From Patescibacteria group bacterium (lineage in GTDB: Bacteria > Patescibacteriota > UBA1384 > XYA2-FULL-43-10), in contig JBAYVT010000001.1 of the NCBI GenBank assembly GCA_041674405.1, positions 103,967 through 167,966 of the forward strand: a stretch of 64,000 nt of DNA, written 5' to 3'. Each line of letters starts with the position of its first letter. Positions within the stretch are counted from its first letter, which is position 1. Shown here one piece after another: positions 11,890 through 56,802 of this stretch. Below the pieces are notes generated by a model. The model made no database searches and was not told the DNA's origin. It was given only the letters and a program-made list of their open reading frames with translations. Both the position numbers and the translations under genes were made by a program.

Positions 11890-12041
11890 CAACCTGTCCC
11901 CGTACAAGACTATATTCCTACATTTTTTGCAAAAAACTTTATTGCATTTTTTCGGCAACTCATTTGTCGATTTTTGATTCTTTTGTTAGAATGGCTTTGC
12001 CTGAAAAAGGAGTACCTACCATTACAAGGAGAGTGAGCGCA

Positions 12042-13300: not shown

Positions 13301-16210
13301 ATGAAAAAAGAAAAAACTATTCGCGATAAGGCCATGCGCCACACCGGCATTGAAATTGTCGGCGATATGCCATGGGGTACTCATTTTTGCCAGTTTTATA
13401 AAACCAAAGAAGATCTTATCGATGTTTTAGTCCCCTACTTTAGAGAGGGACTTTTAAATAATGAAAAATGTATTTGGGTCACTTCCGGCTTTTTAAATGA
13501 TGACGAAGCGATCACCGCGCTTCTTAAAGTAGTTCCAAGCATTCAAAAATATATAAAAAGCGGCCAGATTGAAATTTTCCCGTACACTAATTGGTATTTG
13601 AAACACGGAAAATTTGATCTTAAGCGCGTCCTTGCCAAGTGGGTTAAAAAACACGATGAAGCGATAAGAGATGGTTATGAAGGAATAAGAGTTACCGGAA
13701 ATCCGTTTTGGATCGATAACAAGAAGGACTGGAATGATTTTGCCGAGTACGATGCTGAAATTAATAATATTATTGATGATTATAATCTTCTCATTCTTTG
13801 CACTTACTCGCTTGAAAAATGCAACTCAGATGCAATTTTCGACGTGGTTGCAAACCATGAATTTGCCCTGACCAAACGTGATGGAAAGTGGAAATTAATT
13901 GAAAATTCCGAACACAAAAAAACAGGGCAAGCCCTGCTAGAAAGTGAAAAAAAATACCGTTCGTTGTTTGACCAAATGTCGGAAGGCTTTGCACTGCATG
14001 AAATTATTTGCGATAAAAGTGGAAAACCAATTGATTATCGTTTTATAAATGTAAATCCCGGATTTGAAAAGTTAACAGGCCTAAAAGCGAAAAATATAAA
14101 CGGGAAATTACTTAGTGATGTATTGCCCAATGAAGATCCCAAATGGCTGCGCGAATATGGCGAAGTGGCACTCACTGGCAAACCGGCTCGTTTTGAAAGT
14201 TATTCACCAACCTTAAAACGCTATTATAATGTTTTTGCATATTCGACAAACCCGGGGCAGTTCGCTGTAATTTTTTCTGATATCACAGACAGAAAACTTG
14301 CTGAAATTGAAACGGCAACTAATCTAATGAAATATTCTGTTTTATTTAATTCAATTCCTGTGGGAGTTAGTGTTACTGATCGCAAGGGAAATATTATCGA
14401 AACAAATGAAGAAACATCCAGGATTTTAGAAGAGTCACGCGAGAGCATAATGGGAAGAAAAATTGGCCACCCCAAATGGAAATCCATTTATTCCGATGGA
14501 AAGAAAATCAAACCCGATGAATTTCCAAGCCTTACTACCCTGCATGAAAAACGCATTGTTGATGATTTTGAGATGGGGCTCGTAAAAGAAAAAAACAAAA
14601 TTACCTGGATCAGTGTATCCTCCCAACCAATACAGAAAATCGAGGATTACGGGGTACTTACCACATATATAGACATAACCAAACGCAAGCTGGCCGAAAA
14701 TGAGCTAAAAAAGCTTCAACAACAAATGACTGCAATTTTGGAAAACATCGATGGTGGGTTTATTGCATTAAACAAAGATTGGAAATATACATTTATAAAC
14801 AAAAAGGCGGCAAATAATTTATTTAAAGAGCCGGAAGATTTGATCGGAAAAAATATTTGGACGGAGTTTCCAAAACTACTAGGCACTTCTATAGAAAAAA
14901 ATTTTAGAAAAGTAATGCACACCAACGTGCCTATGTACTACGAAGAAAAGGGAATTGAAACAGACCGGTGGTATGAAAACCACATTTATCCCATACCTGA
15001 AGGTATTGCGATTTTTTGGAGTGATATTACTGCACGTAAACGTGCGGAGCTAGAAAATGCGCTTCTATCTAAAACTCTTAAAAAGGAAGATCGCAGAAAA
15101 AACGAATTTATTGCCATACTCGGCCACGAGCTCCGCAATCCACTTGCTCTCCTTTCCGCATCAATTCAAATCCAGAGGGAGTCTCTTGAAAAATGCCGGA
15201 AAGGACAAAAATTTGACAAAAAATTAGTGTTTGAGGCTAATGAAATTTCAGCCGAGCAGATAAATACAATGTCCACATTACTCAATGATCTTTTGGACAT
15301 TTCTCGGATATCTCGCGGTAAAATTCAACTCAGAAAAGAAAAGATTCCTTTAAATTCAATTATTAAAAAAGCAATGAATTCTGTTTTGCCAAATATTGTT
15401 GCAAAAAATCATATTCTAAAAGAGGAATTGGCCGGTGAAAATATTGTCCTCTATGCTGATCCGGTTAGGATTGAGCAAATTATTGTAAACCTACTAAATA
15501 ATGCCGCCAAATATACTGATCCGAAAGGAAAAATTGTTATTAAGACCTCTTTTGATAACAATTTTGCGATTATTTCTATCCGAGACACTGGGATTGGAAT
15601 ACCAAATAACCAATTGGATGAAATATTTGAACCTTTCGTGCAATTGAGCACCGCACAAAAAAAATCTCAAGGCGGTCTTGGAATAGGCTTGATGCTGTCC
15701 AAACAATTGGCAGAACTTCATGGCGGCGACATAAAAGCTAAAAGCAACGGTATGAATAAAGGCAGTGAATTTATTGTCCAGATTCCAGCCGATTTAAAAC
15801 ACCGCAACCATTCAAGAATAAGGCAAGAAAACAAAAACGAAGGCAAAACAACAAAAAAAGTCCTCTTGGTAGATGATAATACACGGATAGCCGAGTTGTT
15901 TAGTAAGTTACTATCTCAATTTGGATATCTTACCAAAACAGCTTTTGAGGGCGAAAGCGCAATCAAAATTTCAAAGTCATTTAATCCAGATATTATTTTA
16001 CTTGATATCGGCCTTCCAGGAATCGATGGCCATGAAACTGCCAGATTGCTTCGAAAACAACACAGAAACAACCCTTCTTTAAAAATAATTGCCATAAGCG
16101 GATACGGAACAAGCGAGGATAAAAAGAAATCAAAAGAAGCAGGTTGTGACGCGCACATAACCAAACCGGTTAATGCTAACAAGCTCCGTGAAATTATTGA
16201 GGCTATATAA
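13301..16210 (+). CDS. Hybrid sensor histidine kinase: MEDS-like N-terminal domain, ~3 PAS, HisKA, HATPase_c and C-terminal receiver
   Basis: N-terminal GTHFCQFYKTKEDL is a MEDS-type signature. Three ...DITDRK/DITKRK/DITARK PAS boundaries. H-box ILGHELRNPL, G-boxes DTGIGI and GGLGIGL. REC domain LLVDDN...LLDIGLPGIDG...K. Confidence 0.85.
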   Translation: MKKEKTIRDKAMRHTGIEIVGDMPWGTHFCQFYKTKEDLIDVLVPYFREGLLNNEKCIWVTSGFLNDDEAITALLKVVPSIQKYIKSGQIEIFPYTNWYLKHGKFDLKRVLAKWVKKHDEAIRDGYEGIRVTGNPFWIDNKKDWNDFAEYDAEINNIIDDYNLLILCTYSLEKCNSDAIFDVVANHEFALTKRDGKWKLIENSEHKKTGQALLESEKKYRSLFDQMSEGFALHEIICDKSGKPIDYRFINVNPGFEKLTGLKAKNINGKLLSDVLPNEDPKWLREYGEVALTGKPARFESYSPTLKRYYNVFAYSTNPGQFAVIFSDITDRKLAEIETATNLMKYSVLFNSIPVGVSVTDRKGNIIETNEETSRILEESRESIMGRKIGHPKWKSIYSDGKKIKPDEFPSLTTLHEKRIVDDFEMGLVKEKNKITWISVSSQPIQKIEDYGVLTTYIDITKRKLAENELKKLQQQMTAILENIDGGFIALNKDWKYTFINKKAANNLFKEPEDLIGKNIWTEFPKLLGTSIEKNFRKVMHTNVPMYYEEKGIETDRWYENHIYPIPEGIAIFWSDITARKRAELENALLSKTLKKEDRRKNEFIAILGHELRNPLALLSASIQIQRESLEKCRKGQKFDKKLVFEANEISAEQINTMSTLLNDLLDISRISRGKIQLRKEKIPLNSIIKKAMNSVLPNIVAKNHILKEELAGENIVLYADPVRIEQIIVNLLNNAAKYTDPKGKIVIKTSFDNNFAIISIRDTGIGIPNNQLDEIFEPFVQLSTAQKKSQGGLGIGLMLSKQLAELHGGDIKAKSNGMNKGSEFIVQIPADLKHRNHSRIRQENKNEGKTTKKVLLVDDNTRIAELFSKLLSQFGYLTKTAFEGESAIKISKSFNPDIILLDIGLPGIDGHETARLLRKQHRNNPSLKIIAISGYGTSEDKKKSKEAGCDAHITKPVNANKLREIIEAI

Positions 16211-16239
16211 ATCTTTGAGATTATTTACTAAATAGTGTT

Positions 16240-16277
16240 CTCGGGCGCGCTCTCCGGCGCGCCCGAGTGGGTTTTCC
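16240..16277 (+). terminator. GC-rich hairpin terminator after the sensor kinase
   Basis: CTCGGGCGCGC-tctccg-GCGCGCCCGAG followed by TGGGTTTTCC. Confidence 0.6.
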
Positions 16278-16411
16278 GGCTGCCGCTCCGGCGCCGGTTT
16301 CGGTTTGCTGGCTTATTAAGGCTTTTAAGCCGCACTTGCCTCTCGGAGAACCGCTTGCTGCTCTCCCAACCCCCAGGAACATCCCGAATGTCTGGAAATG
16401 ATTGTGCTTGC

Positions 16412-16615
16412 CTAGCTGATGACATTGCTCTCAGCCTCCTCATAAGCGAAAGAGCAAAGCCCTCCATTTACGGCTACCATCCGCGCTCTCTTTATCCCAG
16501 ACATCGTCAGCGCAACAAGAATGGTGCCAGCGCTCTCTCGCTTGACAACCACCCTCTGCCCTTTCTTGTCCACGATCACTCCATCCTTAGCAATCAAAGT
16601 TCCATCACAAGCCAT
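16412..16615 (-). CDS. Small GC-rich hypothetical protein (67 aa)
   Basis: GGGAGGAAG RBS 4 nt upstream of ATG. Coherent 67-aa ORF MACDGTLIAKDGVIVDKKGQRVVVKRESAGTILVALTMSGIKRARMVAVNGG... in a ~55% GC islet. Confidence 0.45.
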   Translation of the reverse strand: MACDGTLIAKDGVIVDKKGQRVVVKRESAGTILVALTMSGIKRARMVAVNGGLCSFAYEEAESNVIS

Positions 16616-16671
16616 CAATCTTCCTCCCTGTTTGTTCTGGATGCCAGACCTTCAATCGCTCGAAAATCTGG

Positions 16672-16701
16672 CACAAAAACAAAAACCGGCCAATGGGCCG
16701 G
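16672..16701 (-). terminator. Rho-independent terminator on minus strand
   Basis: Minus strand reads CCGGCC-cattg-GGCCGG followed by TTTTTGTTTTTG. Confidence 0.65.
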
Positions 16702-16840
16702 ATTTCTTCAAAAAATATTTAGTTAAGCTTTTACATTAAAAATCACGGCCCTGGTGGTCATGTGTAAAATAAAACCAAAAATTTCTTGTGATATTATTCA
16801 TGCTACTTCAAATATTATCAACAAATTTAAAACAAGTCAA

Positions 16841-40300: not shown

Positions 40301-41161
40301 TCAGTTTGGAGAAATACCTCCAGGGGTAAGAGAAAACCCGATTGTGCCATCTCGGTCGGTGCGGTAGTCTTGGATATTTCGGGAATTTAATAAATCAAGA
40401 GTTGCTGCATGCGGATGGCCATATTTATTCTCCACGCCAACCTCAATAACTGCCACCTGAGGATTGATTTCGTTCAGTGTTGTGGCATTTGTCCCGTTTG
40501 TCGAGCCATGGTGAGAAATTTTCAAAAGATCGGCAGAATAATCTACATTATTTGCTTTTAACTGAGCATATGCAATTGCCTGTTCGTCGGTTTCCATATC
40601 GCCGAGAAAATCGGCGCAATGAGAAAATTCGCAAAAACGGACAAATTCCGAAGTATTGTTCAGGTTATCTCCTGAGATTCCCAAATATTTCTTGCCCGGC
40701 CAAAGAAATTGCAATTCAGCATCGCCAAAAACAGAAATCTTGTCTCCAATTTCCGGAATGGACATTGGGATATTTTTAGATGTAACAGCGTTCAAAAAAT
40801 TAAGATATTGATCACTTGTTGTGATAGAACCGGATGAATAAATCTGCCCAACCTCATATCTTTGAATGATTTGATTAATTCCAGTTAAGTGGTCTGCATG
40901 AGGATGAGTCAAAATGACGATGTCAATTCTTCGATCAGTGATCGGCATGATTTTTCCAATTTCTGAAAGGATGCTGTCATCCGGACCGCCATCGATAAGA
41001 ATTTGATAATCACCTTTTTGTATCAGTTCCGCATCCCCTTGGCCAACATTTAAGAAATATATATTGAGACTATCTGTTGTGGGGCTTTTGGCGATTGTAA
41101 CCCAAAGAAAAATCAAAATTATTATCAAAACCCCCAATATAATTTTTGTGATTCTTCTCAT
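40301..41161 (-). CDS. ComEC-type metallo-beta-lactamase domain protein, membrane-anchored (C-terminal module of ComEC/Rec2 as a separate ORF)
   Basis: ILTHPHADHLTGI MBL motif with its own N-terminal TM helix. ATGA overlap with the upstream ComEC N-terminal ORF. Confidence 0.75.
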   Translation of the reverse strand: MRRITKIILGVLIIILIFLWVTIAKSPTTDSLNIYFLNVGQGDAELIQKGDYQILIDGGPDDSILSEIGKIMPITDRRIDIVILTHPHADHLTGINQIIQRYEVGQIYSSGSITTSDQYLNFLNAVTSKNIPMSIPEIGDKISVFGDAELQFLWPGKKYLGISGDNLNNTSEFVRFCEFSHCADFLGDMETDEQAIAYAQLKANNVDYSADLLKISHHGSTNGTNATTLNEINPQVAVIEVGVENKYGHPHAATLDLLNSRNIQDYRTDRDGTIGFSLTPGGISPN

Positions 41162-42702
41162 AAAATTATTCTAAATTTTCTAATACCAAAAAACAAAAAA
41201 ATTATTATGCAAGAATAAAGAAATAAAACTAAAACAATTGAATTTTGGCCAAATTCGAACGATGAAAACGGCAGCACTGAAGCGATTTCAGTAGCCTTGA
41301 TAACATATGTTAAAACTGGCCAAGCGAGTAATGCAAGAATTTTTCCCAAATAATAGTATATTATTCCTGATAGGCCAGCAATGAACGAGACCAGCATGGC
41401 AAGTGGCAGAATCCAAAGAACCAGAAAATTAGCAATCGGAGCAATCAGCGAAAACCTACCAAAAACATAGATAATGAGTGGAAAAACAGCGATTTGTGCC
41501 GATAGGGTTTCAACGAATGGTAATTTTATCCAATCGGGCCAGTTTCGAAATCTTGATGAATCAAATAGCCTTGAAATGATAGGAGAGAAATAAATTAGGC
41601 CAGCAAATGCAAGAAACGAAAGCTGAAAACCAATATCATTTGTAAGAATAAAGGGATTTGCAAGAATCATAATTATTGCCGCAAGCAACATCATATTTGT
41701 CTGATCTGCTTTGCGGCCAACTGTCGACCCATAAATTACCAACGTTGAAAATATTCCCGCCCTTATCACACTTGAGGCAGCACCAGTCATGATCACAAAC
41801 AATGTTACAAGCACGACTCCGGCCCAGAAAGTTTTTCTTTTTCCTAGATGCTGGACAAGTAATTGTGAAAAAACCAGCATGATTATTGTCACGTTATATC
41901 CAGAAAGTGCAACAATATGGGTTAGGCCGGTTCTGTTTAAATCATCGGTTAAATCGGCTGGAATATTTCTCTTGATTCCAAGAACAAGTCCCGCGGCAAG
42001 CGATGCTTGGGGTTCCGGGAGAATACTATTGATCGACTGCTCAAAGTATGATGATATCATATACAATATCCTGATTGAATGCGTAATCATACTCTGATTT
42101 TTTCCACTTTTAAATACTGAATCAGGATTTTGAATAATCCCCGAAACCAGATTTTTCTTAAGAAATTTTTTATACGATGGATCAATGCTGCTACTCGTGC
42201 TTGACTCCACATTTCCAGATAGCTCGACATAATCGCCATATTCAAGAATTGGAATTTTTGGCAAATCGGCCTGAATTCTTGGTTCGGAACTTGAAATAGT
42301 CGTGCCATCGACATTTTTTACTGAAATTTCGACGCGTTGTTTTTCATAATCAACTTGCGGGTTATTTGCTATCATTCCGACAATTTTCACATCGCCAAAT
42401 TTTGGCATCTCGGCCACCCGGCTCGAAAACAAGGAATAAAGCAATAAAGCTAAAAAAATTATTACAAATGACCAAGCAATGATAGTTAAAAGGCGATTTT
42501 TAAGTAGAAAATTTACAAGTGTGAAAAATATTAGAGATATGATGGTAAATAAAATAATTTGCCATGATCGAGCAAAATCAACAGCAGTGTATGACGAGAT
42601 AAAAATCCCTACAATAAATACTAGAGCATAAATTGTAAACACTCGATATGGCGGAATCATTTTTGATTGTAATGTTTTCATCGCTGTTGAAAACCCATTC
42701 AT
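41158..42702 (-). CDS. comEC: ComEC/Rec2 DNA internalisation channel, N-terminal (DUF4131 plus competence) part
   Basis: N-terminal OB-like DUF4131 region followed by the polytopic competence domain. Confidence 0.75.
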   Translation of the reverse strand: MNGFSTAMKTLQSKMIPPYRVFTIYALVFIVGIFISSYTAVDFARSWQIILFTIISLIFFTLVNFLLKNRLLTIIAWSFVIIFLALLLYSLFSSRVAEMPKFGDVKIVGMIANNPQVDYEKQRVEISVKNVDGTTISSSEPRIQADLPKIPILEYGDYVELSGNVESSTSSSIDPSYKKFLKKNLVSGIIQNPDSVFKSGKNQSMITHSIRILYMISSYFEQSINSILPEPQASLAAGLVLGIKRNIPADLTDDLNRTGLTHIVALSGYNVTIIMLVFSQLLVQHLGKRKTFWAGVVLVTLFVIMTGAASSVIRAGIFSTLVIYGSTVGRKADQTNMMLLAAIIMILANPFILTNDIGFQLSFLAFAGLIYFSPIISRLFDSSRFRNWPDWIKLPFVETLSAQIAVFPLIIYVFGRFSLIAPIANFLVLWILPLAMLVSFIAGLSGIIYYYLGKILALLAWPVLTYVIKATEIASVLPFSSFEFGQNSIVLVLFLYSCIIIFLFFGIRKFRIIL

Positions 42703-45041: not shown

Positions 45042-48000
45042 TTATTTAATCCTCGAGATTCCGATCCAAATTTTCTCACCGTCGATACAGAATTCTTCTG
45101 AACCTTCCGGGTTTTCGATTTTTCCGTCAGTGCTTTCTTTCGCTAGTACTTCTTTGGCAATAATTTCCGACATTGATTTCATCACTTTTTTCAATACCTC
45201 TCCCGATGTAGCGTAATTTACAACTATCCTGTTCTCAACTTCAAACCCGGACTTTTTGCGTAGCGATTGGATGTTGCGGATGAGTTCCCTGGCAACACCT
45301 TCGGTTTTTAATTCGTCAGTTAATACCGTATCAAGCTCGACGCCTGTCTCCCCTACTCCGGAATTCTTATCTCCTTCGTCAATATGAATATCTCGTGCGT
45401 CGACATAAACTACTTTTTTCACATTTACTTCTTCAGCAATGATTGTTTCCAAATCTTCAGACAATTTTTTACCGGAATATTTTAGAAGAGCTAAAGGCTG
45501 GCGAACTTTTATTCCCGCTTCCGATCTTTTGGCTAAGCCAGCTTCAACAATCTGCCGTGTTTCTGCCATCTCATCCAGAACAGAAAGATCAAATTCTTCC
45601 GGTGCGGGGAAATCGGCCAAGTGTACCGATTCCGGATCACTTTCTTGCTTTAGGCCCTGATACACGGTTTCGGCGAACATCGGAGTAAACGGCGCCAAGA
45701 GTTTCGATAAGCCGATCAAAACTTCATACAAAGTATGATATGCCGATTCTTTATCGCTGTCAGACTCCGATTTCCAAAATCTGCGGCGTGAGCGGCGGAC
45801 ATACCAAGTAGAAAGTTCGTTTATAAAATCAAGAATCGTATTTGCCGGTCTGTAGGTATCATAGTTATCCAATGATTCGGTGATGGTTTCGGTAAGTTCG
45901 TTAAACTTCGCAAGGATCCATTTGTCTAGAATGTTTGTAGCTTCTGTTTTTCCGCTCGGCTTCCAACCGTCGATTGATGCGTACATAGAAAAGAATGAAT
46001 AAACATTCCAAAGCGTGATAAATAGGTTGCGGGAAACAGACAAAACTTCTTTTTCTGAAAAAAGCTTCGGCTCACCGGGCTGATTCACAGAATAAAGGAA
46101 GAAGCGGACGACATCGGCGCCAACTTTCTCAAATTCAGCCATCGGCTCGACAATGTTTCCCTTCGACTTCGACATTTTTTGCCCTTTTTCGTCTAGAATA
46201 TGTCCTGTCGAGATAACATTTTTAAAACAAGAATTATTTTTTACAATCGTCGAGATCGCGAGAAGCGTGTAAAACCAGCCTCGGGTTTGATCGATCGCTT
46301 CGCAAATGAAATCAGCCGGGTACTGCTCAGCAAAGAGTTCGCTGTTTTCGAATGGATAGTGATATTGGGCGTATGGCATGGAGCCGGAATCGAACCAGAC
46401 ATCCATCACTTCTGGAGTTCGTTTCATCGTTCCGCCGCATTTGCAGGTGAATTCAACCTCATCAACAAATGGTTTGTGAGGATCGAAGGCAGTACCGTCA
46501 GAATTTAGATAAAATTTATGAGATAATTCATGATCAGGGCGTTCGTGTTGGAAGTATCCAGAATAATCCAAGTTCCCTAAAATCATGTTCAATGCACCAT
46601 TAATGGCCCCGTGTGCAACAATAACGATTGTCTTACCAGGATATTCTTTTCCAATCTTGGCTAAAAATTCTTTGACCCTTTCTACAACATCAGCTCTCGT
46701 TTCCCCCGTGGTGCCAAGCTTAAAATTAAATCTTTGTTCAGGAATTTTCTCAGTCACCAAATAATCTTGAAAATCTTTCCTGTCAAGTCTTTGTTCGGGT
46801 GTAAGCTCATTCCATTCGCCGGAGTCCAGCTCAATGATTCTGTCGTCGAATATCAATTCCGCATCTACATGTTTCTTAACGATTTCTGCGGATTGCTTTG
46901 CTCTCAACACCGGAGAAGATATTATTATGTCAACTTTGTCCTTTATTTTTTTTGCGGTTGTTTCCACCTGAGTCACACCCTTCTCTGTAAGAGGCCATTT
47001 ATCAAGCGCTTTTGAATCAATATCAAGAATGTTTCTCTCCGTTTCACCGTGTCGGACAAAGATCAATTTCGTTACCTTAGTATTGCTCTCGTTGAAATCC
47101 ATAAAATTGCCAACGACTTTTTTCTCGTCACACTTGTCGCAAGTCCAGACCGGGAGCGGCGTCCCCCAATATCTGTCACGGGAAATTGCCCAGTCATTGA
47201 TATTTTCGAGCCAATTGCCAAAACGGCCGTGCTTTAAGTAGGCTGGGTTCCAGTTGATTGTCTCATTATTTTCAAGAAGCTCATCTCGAAGTTTCGACAT
47301 CGCGATATACCAAGAATCCTTGGCAAAGTAGAGAAGCGGTGAGTCACAACGCCAGCAGAACGGATAATCATGGGCGAACATCTCTTTTTTAAATAATATT
47401 CCACGTTTTTCAAGATCGAGTTTCACTTCTTTGTCGGCGTCTTTGACAAAGCTTCCTTTGCCAGCGCCGGCAAGCTCCGTCCCCTTTTCATCAACGGTCT
47501 TTAAAACCTTGATGCCGTTCTTGCGAAAACCAAATTCGTAATCATCCTCACCAAATGCCGGGGCAATGTGGACGATGCCGGTGCCGTCTGAATCGGTGAC
47601 AAAATCGGCGACAATCAGCTTGTAAACTTTCTCTCCACCTTCAGAAAATTTATCTCCGTCCGGATAAATCGCTTCGTAATCCGGTTTGTCGGTGAAAGAT
47701 GGGGCAGCAATTTCCGAACCGGTCAGCTCTTTAATGACATTTGCACCAGGCAAAACGGCATCGAGACGGCTTTGCGCAAGTATATACTTCTCTCCGTCTT
47801 TTTCTGCCAAAACGTATTTGATATTCGGGCCAAATGCTAGAGCGGCGTTGCCTGCGAGCGTCCAAGGCGTTGTCGTCCAGACAAGAAAATACGCATCTTC
47901 ATGATTTGATTTAACCTTGATATAGACTGATTCCTCTTCAACATTCTTGTATCCCTGGGCAACCTCATGAGAAGATAACGCCGTACCGCAGCGCGGGCAA

Positions 48001-48563
48001 TATGGCACGACTTTGTGGCCCCTGTAAAGCAAACCTCGTTTTTCAGCTTCGGATATCACCCACCAGATCGATTCGATATATTTGGAATCGTAGGTGACAT
48101 ATGGATCTTTCATATCGAGCCAGTAGGCCATGCGCTCGGTCATCTTTTCCCACTCGGATTTGTAAACAAAAACCGACTCTTTGCAAAGTTTATTGAATTT
48201 GGCAACCGAAGCATTTTTGTCGCCCGGAACGATATTCTCGATATCGCCCTTGCCAGAAATACCGAGCTCCTTCTCCACCTGAAGCTCTACCGGAAGCCCT
48301 TGCGTGTCCCAGCCTGCTTTGCGTCGGACATTGTAGCCTTGCATAGTTTTATATCGGTTGAAAAGATCTTTGAATGCGCGGTTTAGAACATGATGAATAC
48401 CAGGCTTGCCGTTGGCTGTCGGCGGTCCTTCATAGAATACAAAATTGCCTTTCGGGCTATCCTTCCCAAGGCTCTTCTCAAATGTTTTATCCTCTCGCCA
48501 AAATTCGAGAATTTTCTTCTCTTCTTCCGGTAAATTAAGTTTTGGATCAACCTTTTTGAACAT
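45042..48563 (-). CDS. ileS: Isoleucine--tRNA ligase, type 2 (eukaryote/archaea-like), carrying an inserted ~210-aa histidine-phosphatase-fold domain
   Basis: GPPTANGKPGIHHVL (HIGH region), CP1 editing domain, KMSKSKGN. The RHG-phosphatase insert (LIFVRHGETERN ... IVIVAHGAING) lies between the two zinc knuckles (WTCDKCDEK and FTCKCGG), at roughly nt 46476-47108. Confidence 0.9.
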   Translation of the reverse strand: MFKKVDPKLNLPEEEKKILEFWREDKTFEKSLGKDSPKGNFVFYEGPPTANGKPGIHHVLNRAFKDLFNRYKTMQGYNVRRKAGWDTQGLPVELQVEKELGISGKGDIENIVPGDKNASVAKFNKLCKESVFVYKSEWEKMTERMAYWLDMKDPYVTYDSKYIESIWWVISEAEKRGLLYRGHKVVPYCPRCGTALSSHEVAQGYKNVEEESVYIKVKSNHEDAYFLVWTTTPWTLAGNAALAFGPNIKYVLAEKDGEKYILAQSRLDAVLPGANVIKELTGSEIAAPSFTDKPDYEAIYPDGDKFSEGGEKVYKLIVADFVTDSDGTGIVHIAPAFGEDDYEFGFRKNGIKVLKTVDEKGTELAGAGKGSFVKDADKEVKLDLEKRGILFKKEMFAHDYPFCWRCDSPLLYFAKDSWYIAMSKLRDELLENNETINWNPAYLKHGRFGNWLENINDWAISRDRYWGTPLPVWTCDKCDEKKVVGNFMDFNESNTKVTKLIFVRHGETERNILDIDSKALDKWPLTEKGVTQVETTAKKIKDKVDIIISSPVLRAKQSAEIVKKHVDAELIFDDRIIELDSGEWNELTPEQRLDRKDFQDYLVTEKIPEQRFNFKLGTTGETRADVVERVKEFLAKIGKEYPGKTIVIVAHGAINGALNMILGNLDYSGYFQHERPDHELSHKFYLNSDGTAFDPHKPFVDEVEFTCKCGGTMKRTPEVMDVWFDSGSMPYAQYHYPFENSELFAEQYPADFICEAIDQTRGWFYTLLAISTIVKNNSCFKNVISTGHILDEKGQKMSKSKGNIVEPMAEFEKVGADVVRFFLYSVNQPGEPKLFSEKEVLSVSRNLFITLWNVYSFFSMYASIDGWKPSGKTEATNILDKWILAKFNELTETITESLDNYDTYRPANTILDFINELSTWYVRRSRRRFWKSESDSDKESAYHTLYEVLIGLSKLLAPFTPMFAETVYQGLKQESDPESVHLADFPAPEEFDLSVLDEMAETRQIVEAGLAKRSEAGIKVRQPLALLKYSGKKLSEDLETIIAEEVNVKKVVYVDARDIHIDEGDKNSGVGETGVELDTVLTDELKTEGVARELIRNIQSLRKKSGFEVENRIVVNYATSGEVLKKVMKSMSEIIAKEVLAKESTDGKIENPEGSEEFCIDGEKIWIGISRIK

Positions 48564-50460: not shown

Positions 50461-51105
50461 CTATACCTCGATGTACTCTTTAAATTTTTCGAGGATGTCT
50501 GACAATTTATCTTTTTCAAGATCAATTCGATAACCAGGGCGACTGTTTAATTCATCCAGAAGGTCATAGAACTCTTCCTCACCCAAAACTTTCAGCCCCA
50601 AGGCATCAATTTCTTTGTCTAGTATTTTATTAGCGTCAGCAACATTCTCTTCATCAGTCAAGATTTCGGCCTCAAAATAATGTCCCCAATCAGGGACTTC
50701 AACAACTGCAAATTCGACTCCACGATACTCGTAGTCATATTTTGTGTTCGCCATAAGGACATATTTTGTAAATCCGAGGATTTTTAGAAATTCGATAAAA
50801 TCAGTGAATTTTTTGGTCTCAAATTCAAAATTATATTCTTTTCTGGCATCTTTGCCACTCCATTTGCCATATTTGCATGCTAACTCTGCTTGGCCATTTG
50901 TGATACGGATTTTAAGATCGACCGGATCATCTTTCACTTCGCGAATACTTTTTATGCTTGCGCTTTTTATCATCGAAAAGCGTTTTTTCTTGCCTAAAAA
51001 AGTGCCTTCCTTGGAGAGAAAAGAATTTAAATGCTCAAACTTTTCCGCGGTCAGTAGCCCGCGATGCTCGACTTCCATCTGCGACATATTATTCCTTATG
51101 GCCAA
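50461..51105 (-). CDS. CYTH-domain protein (triphosphate tunnel metalloenzyme / class IV adenylyl cyclase-like)
   Basis: N-terminal EVEHRGLL (ExExK-type) and alternating charged beta-strand pattern. Confidence 0.65.
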   Translation of the reverse strand: MAIRNNMSQMEVEHRGLLTAEKFEHLNSFLSKEGTFLGKKKRFSMIKSASIKSIREVKDDPVDLKIRITNGQAELACKYGKWSGKDARKEYNFEFETKKFTDFIEFLKILGFTKYVLMANTKYDYEYRGVEFAVVEVPDWGHYFEAEILTDEENVADANKILDKEIDALGLKVLGEEEFYDLLDELNSRPGYRIDLEKDKLSDILEKFKEYIEV

Positions 51106-51133
51106 ATTTAAAAAGTAGTATTATTATTTTACT

Positions 51134-52135
51134 ATGGAAAACAAACTAATTACCAGTCTAAATAAATTTTACAGTTTAGATATTACTCGGATTGTTGCCA
51201 AAGCTAAGGGCGGATTTTTGAGTGATAATATGATTGTGGCAAACAAAGACCAAAAATTCTTTCTACGCAAATACCGTGACAAATATTCCAGTGATGATAT
51301 TGCAAGTATACACAAAAGTAAGCAATTTTTCTTCGAACATGGCATTCCCATAATCATGCCGATTAAAACCGTAAATGGAGACACATTCGTTGAAATTACT
51401 GGTAAATTTTATGGATTATTTCCATTTATCGAAGAAAAAGATATTAACCGAAACAAGCTAAACGACGACGTTTTAATATCAATCGCTCAGATGCAAGCGA
51501 AAATGCATCTTTTGAGTAAAGATGGAACGCCAAAAGTTACTGTAGAATCGAAAAATGTTTGGGATAAAAAAAAATCTTTACAAATGGCAAAGGAATTTGG
51601 AAAAATCATTTCACAGAAAAAATTATTAAATGGATTTGATCGCTTAGCAAGGAAATTTATTAGGCTAAAGAAGAAAATAATTGAAGAAAATAAATTAAAG
51701 TTTGAAGATTTGAACATCAGGTCAGATCACCTGGTTCATGGTGATTTCCATGCCGGTAATCTGTTTTATGACGATAACGATACGGTAAAATATGTATTCG
51801 ATCTCGAAAAAACGATTTTCGCGCCACGGGCATTTGAGCTTGTTAGGTCAATCATATTTATATGTTTCAGTAAGGGCTTTGAAAAGGGCATGGAAAAAGC
51901 CGGTTTGTATTTGAAAGCTTATCACAAAATATATCCGATCTCGGATTCAGAATTTCGGGCAGGATTTCTCATGAGATATCTTGATATGGCTCATTCTTTC
52001 TGGATCGAAGAGCATCATTATCTAAAGAAGTACTACAAAACAGATGTTTTATACCGAGACGATTTTATAAAACTAGAATATTTTTCCCGTGATATCAAGG
52101 GCGTGATTCGGAGAATATTAAAAAACGCGAAATAG
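51134..52135 (+). CDS. APH-family phosphotransferase (aminoglycoside/homoserine-kinase-II-like)
   Basis: HLVHGDFHAGNLFYDDNDTVKYVFDLE matches HGD..N...D[FL]E. Confidence 0.75.
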   Translation: MENKLITSLNKFYSLDITRIVAKAKGGFLSDNMIVANKDQKFFLRKYRDKYSSDDIASIHKSKQFFFEHGIPIIMPIKTVNGDTFVEITGKFYGLFPFIEEKDINRNKLNDDVLISIAQMQAKMHLLSKDGTPKVTVESKNVWDKKKSLQMAKEFGKIISQKKLLNGFDRLARKFIRLKKKIIEENKLKFEDLNIRSDHLVHGDFHAGNLFYDDNDTVKYVFDLEKTIFAPRAFELVRSIIFICFSKGFEKGMEKAGLYLKAYHKIYPISDSEFRAGFLMRYLDMAHSFWIEEHHYLKKYYKTDVLYRDDFIKLEYFSRDIKGVIRRILKNAK

Positions 52136-52143
52136 CGAAATAG

Positions 52144-55100
52144 CTAAATCACGATATTTACAATTTTTCCAGGTACGACGATTACTTTTTTAATCTCTTT
52201 GCCAGTAATAAATGCGCTGACTTTTTCACTATTTTTAGCAGCTTCCTCGAGGGCAGTTTTTTCAATATCTTTATCTACTTCGATGACATCGCGAAGTTTG
52301 CCATTGACCTGAATGGCAATTTTGATCTTATCGTCGCCTTTCAAGCTTTCATCAAATTTCGGCCAAGCTGAATTTGAAACCAAACCCTCGTTGCCGAGCT
52401 TTTCCCATAATTCTTCGGCCAAATGAGGAGCAGCCGGTGCTAGAAGCTGGCAGAATACACCAAATGATTTTTTACTAATTTCTTTCTCGGCCGACATAAG
52501 ATTGTTGAAAGTCATAAGTTTGGCAACATAAGTATTCAAGTTGAATCGCTCAAGATCGTTCTCAACAGCAAAGACTAATTTATTTACAGCAACTGCAAGA
52601 TTATCACTATCAACTTTACCAGAGACTTTGTCCGAGTTTTCCCAAACTTTATTAAGAAATCTTGAAACGCCAGATAAGCCGTCCATGTTCCAGGCGGATT
52701 CTTTATCATACGGCCCGATGAACATAATGTAGGTGCGAAGCGCATCGGCACCATAGCGCTTCACAACATCATCCGGATTGACCACATTCCCCCGCGATTT
52801 GCTCATTTTTTGGTTGTCCGCGCCAAGTATGATCCCGTGAGCGATTCGTTTGTTATATGGCTCAAGCGTTGGCACTTTGCCAAGATCATATAGAAATTTG
52901 TGCCAAAAACGCGAATACAAAAGGTGCAAAGTTGTATGTTCGTTGCCGCCATTGTAAAGATCAACCGGCATCCAATATTTCAATTCTTTGACTGATGCTG
53001 AGAAAATGTCTTCGCTTGATTCATAATTCTTGATTCTTGATTCTTGATTCATTGCGTAAGCGATGAAGTACCACGATGATCCCGCCCAGTTTGGCATCGT
53101 ATCGGTCTCGCGCTTGGCGGGGCCGCCGCACTTCGGGCAGGTTGTATTTACCCAGTCGGTAATTGCGGCAAGCGGGGACTCACCGGTATCGGTCGGCTCA
53201 TACTTTTCAACCTCCGGTAAAGTAAGTGGTAAATCTTTCTCATCCATCGGCACAGTCCCGCACTTCTCGCAGTGGATGATAGGGATCGGCTCGCCCCAGT
53301 AGTGCTGGCGGGAAAATATCCAGTCACGAAGCTTGAAATTGACTGCGAAATCCCCGGCACCCATTTCCTTGAGCTTCTCGGTTATTTTCTTTTTACCTTC
53401 TTCTGATGTTAACCCATCAAACTCTTTGGAATTGGCAAGAACGCCATATTCCTCAAATGAATGTGCTGGATTATGAAAGCGGTCACGGACAATTTCATGC
53501 TCTATCGGCAGGACATATCCTTTGATATTCTCAATTTCATCCCAATCCGCCCAGAACGGTTCGCTTTCCTCTGCCTCTTCTTTGGATAACGGCTCCTGCT
53601 CCTCATCAAGCAACTCGAAAGCCAAAGGATAATATGTAGCTTTTCTATTCACATTTTTGTGAGTTGCATGGAAATGGACTTCCATCGGGCCGCCTAAGTT
53701 TCGAACGAATTTGACGTTCTTGTAACCGGTTTCTTCTAAAATCTCGCGCTTGGCGGTATCAACGATTGATTCACCTGGCTCAATGCCGCCGATAACCAAC
53801 CCGATCCAAGGAAACTTCTTCCACTTAAGGGCTAGAACTTTGTTATTTTTGGGATTTATTACCACGGCATAAACCTGCTTTCGCTCGACTGTCTCTACGC
53901 CATCGATTGGCGGATCATTTTTATCAATTAGTTTAGGAATGATAACTTCCTTGATTGGAATATTGTATTTTTCGGCAAATTCAAAATCCCTCTGGTCGTG
54001 CGCAGGCACCGCCATCACGGCACCGGTTCCATAGGTTGCGAGAACATAATCAGCAATCCACACAGAAACTTCCTCGCCGTTTATCGGATTTATAGCTTTA
54101 ATTCCTTTTAATTCCACTCCAGTCTTGTCTTTGGCAAGCTCAGTCCTGTCCATATCTGACTTTTTCTTCGCATTTTCAATATAGTTTTCCACATCTTTGA
54201 CATTTGATATTTGATCTTTGATTTTGTCAACGAGTTCGTGTTCCGGCGCTAATACTATATATGTCACGCCGAAAAGCGTATCCGCGCGAGTAGTGTAGAC
54301 CTTGATAATATTATCATTTAAGGATTCCAGAAACTTGGCTCTTTCAAGATCATTTTTTCCGGCTCTGCGTTCTTTTTGGGCGGTAATCTTATAACAATTT
54401 GCCAGCCATTTTGCATCGGGAACTAAAAATTCATGCCCGTCCAGTTCTTTTATAGTATCTCCCAGATCATGATCAAGTGTCCCAATCTCAATGTTGAAAT
54501 CATCAGTACGAAAGACGCAAACCTGAAATTTTCCGTTGTCCTTATCTTCAATTTTACTGTAACCAAGTTCAGAAAAGATTTTTTTGCTTTCATCAAAATC
54601 TTTGGCCAAAACTCCCAAATCAACATCTGCAGGATTTTCAAAAATATTTCCGCAATATCCAGCAACTGCAAAAGTACCATTAACCCAGAGTTTGATATTG
54701 CGCTTTTTAAATTCTGAATTGATCCTATCAATCGCTTCAAGCATTTTATTTGTTTTGTCAGAAATATTGGCATTCCCAAGATCAACTTTTTCTGAAGTTT
54801 GCTCCGCTTCGGTTGAAATGACAATTTTAAAATCAATTTCCGTTCCCTCGGATCGGCCAATCCAGTTTATCTGCTGGGTTTTGATATTCTCAAGATAATC
54901 AACGGTATCGAGATCCTTGATCAATCTATCTGCATAGGCTGTGATACGGAGCATCCATTGCTTCTGTTTGCGTTTTTCTGTCTGCGCGCCGCAGCGTTCA
55001 CAATTTCCGCCGATCACCTCTTCGTTGGCGAGGATGATTTTGCATGATGGGCACCAGTTAACTGGCATCTCGGCCTGAAATGCCAAGCGTGGAGTTTCTT

Positions 55101-55587
55101 TGTCGTCATCGGCAACTTCGACAAGCTTGCCGTTGACAATCGCGTGCTTATAGAACTGCATGAATATCCACTGCGTCCATTTATAATAATTGGGATCAGT
55201 AGTATTGACCTCGCGACCCCAATCGAAGGAATAGCCAAGCGATTTCATCTGCTTTTTGAAGGTCGCAATACTTAGTGTGGTAACGTCTCTTGGTTTTGTC
55301 TTGGTTTTAATTGCGTAATTCTCTGTCGGCAGACCAAATGCGTCCCAACCCATTGGAAAAAGAACATTGTAGCCTTGCATCCTTTTCATACGCGTAAACG
55401 CATCCGAGGCGGTGTAACCCATGCAGTGTCCAACGTGCAATCCTGATCCGGAAGGATAAGGGAACTCCATGAGGGAGTAGAACTTCGGCTTATCGGAAAA
55501 ATCAATGGACTGGCCGTATTTCGCCTCTTCCCAGGCCTTCTGCCATTTAGATTCAATTTTTTCAAAATCGTATTTTGCCATAATCAA
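52144..55587 (-). CDS. leuS: Leucine--tRNA ligase carrying two inserted enzyme-fold domains (nucleotidyltransferase-like and NUDIX)
   Basis: HVGHCMGY (HIGH), CPSC...CERCG zinc domain, NWIGRSEG, CP1 editing, KMSKSRGN, 1147 aa. Insert 1 sits between EIDFKI and VYTTRADT (E. coli has 7 aa there) and contains GTFAVAGYCGNIFENPADVDLGVL, a GS...DhDh nucleotidyltransferase motif. Insert 2 after YNIPIKEVI contains the Nudix box GGIEPGESIVDTAKREILEETGY. Confidence 0.9.
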   Translation of the reverse strand: MIMAKYDFEKIESKWQKAWEEAKYGQSIDFSDKPKFYSLMEFPYPSGSGLHVGHCMGYTASDAFTRMKRMQGYNVLFPMGWDAFGLPTENYAIKTKTKPRDVTTLSIATFKKQMKSLGYSFDWGREVNTTDPNYYKWTQWIFMQFYKHAIVNGKLVEVADDDKETPRLAFQAEMPVNWCPSCKIILANEEVIGGNCERCGAQTEKRKQKQWMLRITAYADRLIKDLDTVDYLENIKTQQINWIGRSEGTEIDFKIVISTEAEQTSEKVDLGNANISDKTNKMLEAIDRINSEFKKRNIKLWVNGTFAVAGYCGNIFENPADVDLGVLAKDFDESKKIFSELGYSKIEDKDNGKFQVCVFRTDDFNIEIGTLDHDLGDTIKELDGHEFLVPDAKWLANCYKITAQKERRAGKNDLERAKFLESLNDNIIKVYTTRADTLFGVTYIVLAPEHELVDKIKDQISNVKDVENYIENAKKKSDMDRTELAKDKTGVELKGIKAINPINGEEVSVWIADYVLATYGTGAVMAVPAHDQRDFEFAEKYNIPIKEVIIPKLIDKNDPPIDGVETVERKQVYAVVINPKNNKVLALKWKKFPWIGLVIGGIEPGESIVDTAKREILEETGYKNVKFVRNLGGPMEVHFHATHKNVNRKATYYPLAFELLDEEQEPLSKEEAEESEPFWADWDEIENIKGYVLPIEHEIVRDRFHNPAHSFEEYGVLANSKEFDGLTSEEGKKKITEKLKEMGAGDFAVNFKLRDWIFSRQHYWGEPIPIIHCEKCGTVPMDEKDLPLTLPEVEKYEPTDTGESPLAAITDWVNTTCPKCGGPAKRETDTMPNWAGSSWYFIAYAMNQESRIKNYESSEDIFSASVKELKYWMPVDLYNGGNEHTTLHLLYSRFWHKFLYDLGKVPTLEPYNKRIAHGIILGADNQKMSKSRGNVVNPDDVVKRYGADALRTYIMFIGPYDKESAWNMDGLSGVSRFLNKVWENSDKVSGKVDSDNLAVAVNKLVFAVENDLERFNLNTYVAKLMTFNNLMSAEKEISKKSFGVFCQLLAPAAPHLAEELWEKLGNEGLVSNSAWPKFDESLKGDDKIKIAIQVNGKLRDVIEVDKDIEKTALEEAAKNSEKVSAFITGKEIKKVIVVPGKIVNIVI

Positions 55588-55630: not shown

Positions 55631-56371
55631 CTATGGTAGGCGACAAAAAAGTACTTCTTGTTGGTAATCTTTCGTTTCTGCAATTATTTTTCCCTCCGTT
55701 GAAAATAAGTAACCACCTCCCGGAAAATCATCATCCATATTTCGTCCAGACTGAGTCGCGACAGCAATATTGATTTTATTTTCTCTGGCATAATTTCCAA
55801 TTTTTGTAATGCAATTATTTTTCCACCACAAATAGCCCTTCTCCCAGTTACGATTTTCTCGATCGCCATACAAATCAGGAGATGCGCACTCAAACACTAC
55901 TTTGCAACCCTTGGTTGCATATTCTTTATATAATTCTGGCAAATCAATATCAGCACAAATTGTAATGCCGAACCTTACTCCACCCAAATCAAAAATTGGT
56001 GATTCAACTCCAGAAGAAAAAATCTTCTCCTCTCCGCTTTGGACATTATGCTTACGGTAAACACCTACGATTTTCCCATTTTGAGCAAAAATTTGGGTAA
56101 TGTGATATCCGGAATTGTCTTTTTCTCCTATTCCAAACAAAATTGCAATATCCTTGCTTGCTCCAACAACTTTCTTTACAGGTTTGCTCTCTAATTCCAG
56201 ACATGTATCGATATAATTATTTTCTGTAAAATAACCCGTTAGACTCATTTCCGGGAACACGGCTACATCCGCCTTTGCTTTTGCTGCAAAAGAAATATAA
56301 TCGGACATTCTCTCCGAATTAATTTTGATTTCACCCTTTGCTGAGGGCATTTGAACCAAAGCTATTTTCAT
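55631..56371 (-). CDS. Carbon-nitrogen hydrolase (nitrilase superfamily)
   Basis: MKIALVQM..., FPEMSLTGY, catalytic GITICADI (E-K-C triad context). Confidence 0.8.
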   Translation of the reverse strand: MKIALVQMPSAKGEIKINSERMSDYISFAAKAKADVAVFPEMSLTGYFTENNYIDTCLELESKPVKKVVGASKDIAILFGIGEKDNSGYHITQIFAQNGKIVGVYRKHNVQSGEEKIFSSGVESPIFDLGGVRFGITICADIDLPELYKEYATKGCKVVFECASPDLYGDRENRNWEKGYLWWKNNCITKIGNYARENKINIAVATQSGRNMDDDFPGGGYLFSTEGKIIAETKDYQQEVLFCRLP

Positions 56372-56802
56372 TGTTTATTCGTTAAATATTTAACAAGTTT
56401 TTCTTTTGCAAATGTTGGATAAAGATTTGGGGTTTTTGAAATGTCGTCGAAATCCATCCAGTGAATATAGTATTGATTATTTGAATCAGTCAACATTTTT
56501 CGCGGTTCGTTGAGTTTCGGTTTTCCGCTGAATTTATCAATCAAGAAAAAGTAGCTGGTTCTACCAATATCATTTCCATTCTTTTCAACATATCCCTCAA
56601 ACAAAAGTTTTCCAGTTTCAGCATCAATACCGAGTTCTTCTTTCAATTCGCGCTTCGCTGTTTGCTCGAGACTTTCTCCTTCCTCGACTCCACCGCCGGG
56701 AAAGCTAAAATATTCTTCTCCATCCTTGATCCTACGAAACAGGAGAATTTTATTATCTTTCAATATAATCCCGCACGCTCTTTGGGTTATCCTAAAATTC
56801 AT
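56368..56802 (-). CDS. NUDIX hydrolase
   Basis: FPGGGVEEGESLEQTAKRELKEELGI. ATGA overlap with the downstream C-N hydrolase. Confidence 0.9.
   Translation of the reverse strand: MNFRITQRACGIILKDNKILLFRRIKDGEEYFSFPGGGVEEGESLEQTAKRELKEELGIDAETGKLLFEGYVEKNGNDIGRTSYFFLIDKFSGKPKLNEPRKMLTDSNNQYYIHWMDFDDISKTPNLYPTFAKEKLVKYLTNKQ

Follow-up and report, generated by a model that had tools for sequence, protein, structure and literature searches.

How does an aminoacyl-tRNA synthetase, the product of an essential gene, come to hold two further enzymes inside its own reading frame, and what might they be doing there? The question is raised by leuS in a 64,000-nucleotide stretch of DNA from a Patescibacteria group bacterium (assembly GCA_041674405.1, contig JBAYVT010000001.1, positions 103,967 to 167,966 of the forward strand), analysed as a whole and called the window below. 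Its product, a leucyl-tRNA synthetase (LeuRS, or LeuS), is interrupted by a small nucleotidyltransferase (NTase) module and by a NUDIX hydrolase module. Alignment and profile evidence place both of them within the proofreading domain CP1, itself inserted into the Rossmann fold. Comparison with other LeuS proteins suggests that such modules are accessory cassettes, exchangeable between closely related LeuS alleles.

Judged by its sequence, the gene encodes an intact LeuRS of the bacterial type. It matches TIGR00396 (leuS_bact) at 935.8 bits against a cut-off of 548.4, in three stretches because of the inserts, and a first-pass annotation that had credited the 1147-residue protein with every canonical element was right to do so: HIGH (as HVGH, residues 51-54), a first zinc site (179-199), NWIGRSEG (241-248), the CP1 motifs TTRADT (432-437) and HDQRD (530-534), a second zinc site (772-822) and KMSKS (927-931) are all in place, and the profile of the LeuRS editing domain, PF13603, gives 200 bits. 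The closest solved structures are the enzymes of Thermus thermophilus (1H3N, E 3.7e-196) and Escherichia coli (E 3e-166). The domain order is the same as in 1H3N and in the E. coli structures 4AQ7 and 3ZGZ, from the Rossmann core through to the C-terminal domain; the differences from canonical LeuRS are the two enzyme domains in CP1, of ~165 and ~150 residues, and the leucine-specific domain (T. thermophilus residues 594-636), which finds no counterpart in our protein in the alignment to 1H3N. With these motifs retained, we predict an enzyme that both leucylates and edits. A public record of the protein (P0001) is 100% identical, begins two codons later at an ATG (55581; 1145 residues), lies on a 395,669-bp contig and is named 'MAG: class I tRNA ligase family protein [Patescibacteria group bacterium]'.

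Residue alignment to 1H3N puts the first insert in place of T. thermophilus residues 237-242 and the second in place of residues 363-374. The PF13603 profile is broken into three stretches in the query, and positions 19-145 of its 185 lie between the two inserts. In NUDIX-bearing relatives the profile match ends at position ~146-150, directly before the NUDIX domain, and in a LeuS that is uninterrupted there (L030, the Pedobacter protein described below) it reaches position 184. From the split and these end points, both inserts can be placed inside CP1, in agreement with the extent of CP1 in T. thermophilus, which we take to be roughly residues 224-417. The second insert had been described in the first-pass annotation as a NUDIX domain with a full box standing after the CP1 return; the domain and its box are there, whereas the profile shows it nested within CP1 and not beyond it. 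The further claim that both junctions are in frame, with LeuS sequence picking up exactly where it should, is borne out by Pfam, fold searches and independent assemblies, and there is almost no linker at the junctions of either insert.

One might suspect such a protein to be an artefact, either an assembly chimera or a frameshifted pseudogene, or else to hold an intein-like element that is removed after translation. Nothing speaks positively for this; the only observations in that direction are that the sequence comes from a metagenome-assembled genome (MAG) and that the GC content at third codon positions (GC3) of the first insert, 0.285, is unlike that of its host gene. We hold this explanation to be extremely improbable. 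The gene is a single uninterrupted open reading frame (ORF), and an identical leuS with the same neighbours is present in the Logan assembly SRR6484325 (67-kb contig) and in the ENA assembly ERZ27247358 (396-kb contig). The combination of NTase and NUDIX inserts recurs in three samples, being found also in P0002 (ERZ27300156, 59% identity) and in P0120 (JGI 3300014205). An identical gene in two independent assemblies and an architecture seen in three samples mean that the gene is not a chimera, as had been argued from the single sequence. At least 76 distinct clusters carry the NUDIX module, conservation of the inserts at the protein level indicates that they are translated and under selection, and no Hint, LAGLIDADG or HNH Pfam match was found in the whole protein or in either insert. 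The likeness to inteins is still instructive: inteins too are in-frame insertions of whole domains at conserved sites of essential genes, with presence or absence varying among close relatives. Unlike inteins, the two cassettes contain neither a Hint splicing domain nor a homing endonuclease, and the query inserts are homologous end to end to ordinary enzymes, which would be kept in the mature protein.

The first insert is, as far as sequence and predicted fold can tell, a rare and minimal NTase of the Pol-beta type, about 165 residues long and derived from a whole gene. PF10706 (Aminoglyc_resit, gathering score 21) finds the insert alone at 23.2 bits and within the whole protein at 19.3 bits, and phmmer aligns its WVNGTFAVAGY...DVDL onto WIGGGWAIDARLG...DIDL of ANT(2'')-Ia; both the glycine-rich turn and the D-x-D metal site of the NTase fold are present. 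The first-pass annotation had the fold, the DxD and the extent of the insert right; its motif 'GS-x9-DVDLGV' does not occur literally, the actual sequence being W-V-N-G-T-F-A-V-A-G-Y-...-DVDLGV. Structure prediction agrees with the assignment: the AlphaFold model of the insert (pLDDT 82) has the NTase fold and is matched by Foldseek to ANT(2'')-Ia at TM scores of 0.65-0.67, and also to TM1012, LnuA and MenT1, standing equally near MenT1 and ANT(2''). D321, D323 and E367 are shared by every one of the five known copies, and E367 is the probable third catalytic carboxylate. Resemblance to the named families should not be read too closely. ANT(2'')-Ia, LnuA and TM1012 share 11-18% identity with the insert, the Pfam score is borderline and the substrate pocket is not comparable; our module also differs from them in being embedded in a synthetase and in belonging to a tiny family (two clusters among 1.84 billion representatives). 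MenT1, MenT3 (TglT) and MenT4 of Mycobacterium tuberculosis are tRNA nucleotidyltransferase toxins, of which MenT1 matches in fold, but the insert shows neither membership of their sequence family nor an antitoxin; it has no MenT/AbiEii (DUF1814, PF08843) Pfam match, and PADLOC matched none of three inserts.

The NTase module also exists as a gene of its own. The free-standing protein P0121 (161 residues) is 61% identical to the insert and aligns with it from its residue 3 to its last, and P0122 (163 residues; 20.1 bits against PF10706, just under the gathering score) spans the insert from about residue 3 to its stop codon. P0121 is as close to the embedded copies (58-61% identity) as these are to one another (51-68%). 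Its gene lies between those of an M48 peptidase and an HD-domain protein; the HD-domain phosphohydrolase gene follows it in both contigs that carry it (L001:8001-9065; L002:114-1178), and in L001 a tRNA-dihydrouridine synthase gene comes next. An exhaustive profile search of the 1.84 billion cluster representatives returned one embedded cluster (P0120), one further free-standing one (P0122), two fragments and weak matches to ordinary NTases of the PF10706 type, so that the module must be considered very rare. Long repeat proteins that matched profile positions ~107-149 many times over were regarded as spurious.

The second insert is a NUDIX hydrolase domain. PF00293, with a gathering score of 21.1, finds the domain at 53.3 bits when the whole protein is scanned and at 57.9 bits when the insert is scanned by itself, and the box, GGIEPGESIVDTAKREILEETGY, agrees in full with the consensus GX5EX7REUXEEXGU. 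An AlphaFold (AF2) model built from an alignment of 25 homologues reaches pLDDT 95 and has the Nudix fold: Foldseek matches it to 2AZW with E 1e-9, finds 512 PDB matches at E <= 1e-3, and all 50 that are listed are Nudix proteins. The single-domain enzymes it resembles at TM scores of 0.6-0.7 include the E. faecalis MutT/nudix protein, RppH, Ap4A and Ap6A hydrolases, NudI and NUDT15, and on this model the fold matches are too generic for a substrate to be named. Insert 2 shares with these enzymes the complete box and the minimal alpha/beta/alpha fold; it is unlike them in being embedded in LeuRS and in having motifs of its own, W-x-KF-x-W upstream and F-x-A-x-HK-x2-NR downstream of the box, which mark a separate subfamily. 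Among the 77 NUDIX-bearing LeuS sequences that we compared (the query and 76 matches), 72 have the strict box, with its Glu and Arg invariant within those 72, and five do not, P0034 with REITAE being an example. Mean identity to the query is ~41% for the NUDIX domain against 67% for the LeuS core. A conserved Tyr some 16-18 residues past the box is a hallmark of ApnA hydrolases in the Bessman and McLennan literature. At +17 the 72 strict-box sequences have mostly Phe (55, against 11 Tyr and 6 His; Phe in the query), a comparison that serves as a lead and not as a curated test, and at +18 they have Phe in 26, Tyr in 19 and Ala in 18, with His in the query.

Nine free-standing relatives of the NUDIX module (P0156-P0164; 160-164 residues, 43-50% identical) share its motifs over the whole length (IP...ER, W-x2-F-x-W, REILEETGYKN and HK-x2-NR), and their genes lie in unrelated genomic contexts, unlinked to leuS. 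Because both inserts thus have free-standing counterparts of ~160 residues that match them end to end, each cassette corresponds to a whole gene. A different NUDIX gene stands two genes upstream of leuS (56371-56802; 144 residues, PF00293 72 bits) and belongs to another subfamily; we rejected it as the source of insert 2, its likeness being confined to the region of the Nudix box (43% over 53 residues).

Are these inserts peculiar to one lineage? Alignment against related LeuS proteins gave a different answer for each: the NTase module is confined to the few clusters named above, and the NUDIX insert is widespread, which the first-pass annotation had overlooked. Among the 120 best-scoring LeuS homologues of our NUDIX-containing query, 76 have a NUDIX domain at the same site (at least 76 Patescibacteria clusters, a figure that is not a prevalence), and the named matches among the homologues listed all come from MAGs of the Patescibacteria or Berkelbacteria type. 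A scan of genome contigs with the whole protein brought up chiefly ordinary LeuS from a wide range of phyla and no clean taxonomic distribution, and its long matches revealed other enzymes in the same loops. A YdeN-type serine hydrolase (PF06821, Ser_hydrolase) occupies site 1 in P0024, P0049 and P0111, site 2 in a Falkowbacteria protein (L060), and a position past the second zinc knuckle (query residue 776) in P0006; GxSxG is intact in these modules. A Saccharibacteria LeuS of 1215 residues (L004) uses both sites, the first for a Ham1/ITPase domain (PF01725, 41 bits) and the second for NUDIX; the gene, L004:3275-6925, is from a Candidatus Saccharibacteria MAG (CAZDDY010000015.1) and combines two nucleotide house-cleaning enzymes in one synthetase. 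In Pedobacter boryungensis CCUG 60024 (L030:3896-7240) site 1 holds a DUF559 nuclease-like domain (PF04480, 114 bits), and inserts of similar sequence are found there in Mucilaginibacter (L024) and Chryseolinea (L059); the Bacteroidota LeuS with DUF559 have, in addition, an insert of 72-117 residues near the position of the leucine-specific domain. Five further LeuS (P0014, P0030, P0048, P0101 and P0112) share a conserved 167-residue module after query residue 859, between the SSWY region and YWMPVD. It has no Pfam match, and the idea that it might be a degenerate NTase copy, raised by the likeness of IKVW...NG to IKLW..NG, was dropped when hhalign gave a probability of 2%.

Two observations on individual contigs belong here. 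A bacterial-type, NUDIX-bearing LeuS occurs in a bin labelled as archaeal (L005, CAYNAV010000024.1, a 'Candidatus Woesearchaeota archaeon' MAG); probably a Patescibacteria contig was binned wrongly, with transfer as a possible alternative. A GIY-YIG nuclease gene (134 residues, L092:896-1300) stands 200 nt upstream of the P0120 leuS in divergent orientation, and a link to cassette mobility is possible. The inserts also appear to degrade automated annotation of LeuS: among the PGAP-style names shown, all six NUDIX-bearing LeuS are called 'class I tRNA ligase family protein' and all six plain relatives 'leucine--tRNA ligase'. The sole exception is P0005, which has an older, submitter-style name, 'Leucine--tRNA ligase'.

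If the cassettes are accessory, one might expect close relatives to differ in having them, and they do. A rough neighbour-joining tree (810 core columns) intermingles the LeuS with NUDIX and those without, and the closest pairs of the two kinds have core identities of 91.5% (P0042/P0116), 89.3% and 88.8%, where the median of all pairs is 66.5%. In the plain partner a short loop of unrelated sequence stands where the other has the NUDIX module. Both members of the P0042/P0116 pair were recovered from one sample, and the same genes (L32, NusB and RNase III) lie downstream of each. Divergence of the NUDIX domain is uncorrelated with that of the core (Spearman rho 0.03), and our NUDIX domain is 26-31% identical to those of P0120, the nearest core relative of the query, and P0002, though the NTase module is common to all three. 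At the DNA level, the leuS genes of P0043 and P0097 range from 67% to 99% identity per 90 nt, with downstream genes mostly at 90-98%; the index of dispersion is 4.5, reached in none of 2000 codon permutations, third-position differences run from 0.03 to 0.62, with some of the greatest divergence in the segments on either side of the cassette. Such a pattern is the signature of a recombination mosaic. Within our own leuS, GC3 is 0.459 in the NUDIX insert, 0.285 in the NTase insert and 0.44-0.53 in the core (window median 0.363), which is consistent with a NUDIX module inserted long ago and an NTase captured later. Taken from sequence comparison, the cassettes would thus be accessory elements that can pass between closely related LeuS alleles.

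The window holds one other synthetase among its long ORFs, a type-2 isoleucyl-tRNA synthetase (IleRS), and it too is interrupted in frame, by a histidine phosphatase; therefore both class Ia synthetases of the window contain foreign enzymes. The IleRS insert replaces 19 residues just past the zinc knuckle WTCDKCDEK, at a point homologous to the Ser_hydrolase site of the P0006 LeuS. Table 1 gives the coordinates of these features.

Table 1. Features of leuS and of the IleRS gene, in window coordinates (both genes read on the minus strand).
Feature	Position (nt)	Strand	Remarks
leuS, 1147 aa from TTG	52144..55587	-	Single uninterrupted ORF; stop codon 52144-52146
LeuRS N-terminal catalytic part, aa 1-255	54823..55587	-	HIGH, Zn1, NWIGRSEG; ends at first strand entering CP1
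Insert 1, small Pol-beta-type NTase, ANT(2'')/LnuA/TM1012/MenT1-like fold, aa 256-427	54307..54822	-	GC3 0.285
DVD (D321, D323), NTase metal-binding DxD	54619..54627	-	Aligns to D44-I-D46 of ANT(2'')-Ia
E367 in NIEIGT strand, probable third NTase carboxylate	54487..54489	-	From invariance and predicted strand
CP1 editing domain, central part, aa 428-549	53941..54306	-	TTRADT and HDQRD intact; PF13603 profile positions 19-145
Insert 2, NUDIX hydrolase module (~150 aa), aa 550-708	53464..53940	-	GC3 0.459, same as LeuS core
Nudix box, aa 600-622	53722..53790	-	Full match to consensus
HKNVNR, aa 643-648	53644..53661	-	Family motif F-x-A-x-HK-x2-NR past box; common to free-standing relatives
Remaining CP1, then Zn2, KMSKS, anticodon-binding and C-terminal domains, aa 709-1147	52147..53463	-	
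Type-2 IleRS, 1173 aa, histidine-phosphatase domain in frame	45042..48563	-	TIGR00392, 904 bits
IleRS insert, histidine phosphatase, aa 482-691	46491..47120	-	PF00300, 108 bits; RHGE and AHG intact

Several neighbouring genes deserve mention. The upstream NUDIX gene overlaps a CN_hydrolase gene by 4 nt, the pair (55631-56802, minus strand) lies on the same strand as leuS, and the CN_hydrolase gene ends 43 nt before it; the three may form an operon. Downstream (50461-52135) are an APH-family phosphotransferase (333 residues, plus strand, convergent) and a CYTH-domain protein (214 residues), phospho-enzymes of nucleotides or small molecules. A gene for ComEC, the DNA-uptake channel (PF03772, 160 bits; 41158-42702, minus strand), makes uptake of DNA plausible, and is consistent with natural transformation and hence with exchange of cassettes by homologous recombination. 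Farther off, two ORFs on the plus strand stand out by GC3 (11964-13091 at 0.68 and 16235-16726 at 0.53, against a window median of 0.36) and may have been acquired horizontally; they flank a 969-residue hybrid sensor kinase of MEDS-PAS-HisKA-HATPase-REC architecture (13301-16210).

What, then, are the inserted enzymes for? The account that we favour, and to which we give somewhat better than even chances, is that the cassettes are exchangeable, autonomous accessory enzymes carried on loops of class Ia synthetases that tolerate insertion, with a probable role in the turnover of nucleotide pools or of dinucleoside polyphosphates (ApnN). Each would most likely fold as an active enzyme in its own right, tethered to LeuRS and made in a fixed 1:1 ratio with an essential gene, an arrangement that would amount to obligatory co-expression in very small genomes. 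The two CP1 loops and the third site at the second zinc knuckle would serve as general landing pads, which in other lineages are either empty or occupied by a Ham1/ITPase, a serine hydrolase of the YdeN type or a nuclease-like DUF559 domain, and closely related LeuS alleles would gain, lose and swap cassettes, the probable route being homologous recombination between the strongly conserved LeuS sequences on either side. Because most of the inserted modules (NUDIX, Ham1, the histidine phosphatase and the NTase) act on nucleotides or phosphoesters, we think that the NUDIX cassette most likely helps to turn over non-canonical nucleotides or by-products of nucleotide chemistry, synthetase-made ApnN being one candidate; for the NTase, candidate substrates are the hydroxyl of a small molecule, as for ANT(2'') and Lnu enzymes, or the 3' end of RNA or tRNA, as for MenT. 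We infer the activity of the domains, their independence from leucylation, the route by recombination and the substrates, and a number of points count against this account. That the domains act independently of LeuRS is presumed from sequence. Since the inserts sit in CP1, a mobile domain that handles the CCA end of tRNA, with linkers of near-zero length, they may be held rigidly in relation to the editing site and so be functionally coupled to it, and the bias of the cassettes towards nucleotide and phosphoester enzymes could reflect coupling to the ATP, AMP, PPi and ApnN chemistry of the synthetase and not permissiveness of the loops. Ranking on score with a query that itself contains NUDIX inflates the number of NUDIX-bearing sequences (77 with the query, out of the query and 120 matches), the neighbour-joining tree is a crude one lacking support values, and homologous recombination is deduced from one DNA pair. 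In sliding windows at the protein level, meant to detect recombination around the cassette, background conservation dips there too.

The strongest competitor, which we judge to have perhaps one chance in four, is direct coupling, in which the NUDIX domain would hydrolyse Ap4A, ApnN or adenylylated by-products arising from Leu-AMP, and the NTase would extend the 3' end of tRNA-Leu, either to repair it or to block it in the manner of MenT. Aminoacyl-tRNA synthetases synthesise Ap4A and other ApnN, which the Nudix enzymes RppH, NUDT2 and MutT1 cleave asymmetrically (PMC7705103), and MenT enzymes add nucleotides onto the 3' acceptor ends of tRNA (PMC10435456, PMC7450476, PMC11162799). RppH and the Ap4A and Ap6A hydrolases are among the top fold matches of the NUDIX model, the NTase fold is as near to MenT1, a toxin of tRNA 3' ends, as to ANT(2''), and the nesting of both inserts in CP1 and the leaning of the repertoire towards nucleotide chemistry point the same way. 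Against coupling, close relatives live without the cassette, the same loops can hold a Ser_hydrolase or DUF559, both modules also exist as genes unlinked to leuS, the fold matches are generic (TM 0.6-0.7), the +17 residue is mostly Phe in place of the hallmark Tyr, and neither Pfam (MenT/AbiEii) nor PADLOC matched insert 1. A wider form of this idea, rather less likely again, is that class Ia synthetases of Patescibacteria, and LeuRS of some Bacteroidota, are platforms for swappable cassettes wired mechanistically to the synthetase, an unrecognised layer of translational quality control or regulation exchanged by recombination. The antibiotic-modifying enzymes ANT(2'')-Ia and LnuA are the top full-length fold matches of the NTase, and this raises the improbable alternative of on-target detoxification, in which the NTase would nucleotidylate a synthetase inhibitor and the hydrolases would cleave mimics of the aminoacyl-adenylate. 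The gene next to leuS on its downstream side encodes an APH-family kinase, and the logic is akin to that of IleRS with an N-acetyltransferase domain, for which an NCBIfam model exists (NF040702, 'ileS_w_GNAT'), likewise a class Ia synthetase with an extra enzyme domain and a recognised exception family in annotation. That family, however, concerns another synthetase and another enzyme, and our LeuRS, at 70 bits against a cut-off of 1999, is not a member. No LeuRS inhibitor is known as a substrate of ANT- or Lnu-type enzymes, NUDIX, Ham1 and histidine phosphatases are not known to detoxify inhibitors of synthetases, and at 14-16% identity to ANT(2'') there is no residue-level sign of an antibiotic-binding pocket. 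Slightly less probable still is that catalysis is irrelevant and the inserts are structural, binding or regulatory appendages or neutral, decaying passengers. The five sequences without a strict box, the dispensability of the cassettes in close relatives and the lower identity of NUDIX than of the core would suit decoration of this kind, but the Glu and Arg of the box are invariant in 72 of 72 strict-box sequences despite overall identity of ~40%, no NTase copy departs from the DxD or the putative third carboxylate, and the RHG and HG histidines of the IleRS phosphatase and the GxSxG of the Ser_hydrolase modules are intact.

Extra domains on synthetases are known, and are mostly terminal, non-catalytic and eukaryotic. 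A comparable protein is NadM-Nudix, in which an NMN adenylyltransferase of the HUP class, with its HIGH motif, is joined to a Nudix ADP-ribose pyrophosphatase whose substrate is a related nucleotide; that protein is a terminal fusion in the NAD pathway and not a nested one, and homology to LeuRS is claimed only at the level of the superfamily. We found no description in the literature of a Nudix, NTase, Ham1, Ser_hydrolase or DUF559 domain nested in LeuRS CP1, or of cassette-like exchange there, although earlier mention is possible, as subscription journals were largely outside our coverage. The proteins themselves are already in public databases under generic names; the new element is that enzymes which look catalytically intact are nested in the proofreading domain of a bacterial LeuRS. 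Those generic names have a practical consequence, since automated surveys could score genomes with a NUDIX-bearing LeuS as lacking LeuRS altogether.

The finding should surprise specialists in synthetases and is easily tested; the DUF559-bearing LeuS of Pedobacter can be addressed directly in a cultivable organism. If synthetases of this kind did prove to be wired platforms, Nudix, Ham1 and phosphatase cassettes would clear ApnN, mis-made adenylates and non-canonical NTPs at a site that uses ATP, and a MenT- or ANT-like NTase mounted on CP1 would edit or block the 3' end of tRNA-Leu. The finding also offers a testable link between synthetases and the housekeeping of nucleotides and ApnN or the chemistry of tRNA ends. 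The IleRS with its histidine phosphatase indicates that nested enzymes are not limited to LeuRS, and the sites recorded here amount to a natural map of LeuRS and IleRS loops that tolerate insertion of whole domains, of use for synthetase engineering and for understanding CP1 dynamics. For the Patescibacteria themselves, leuS represents a concrete case of gene fusion in reduced genomes, by in-frame capture of whole genes.

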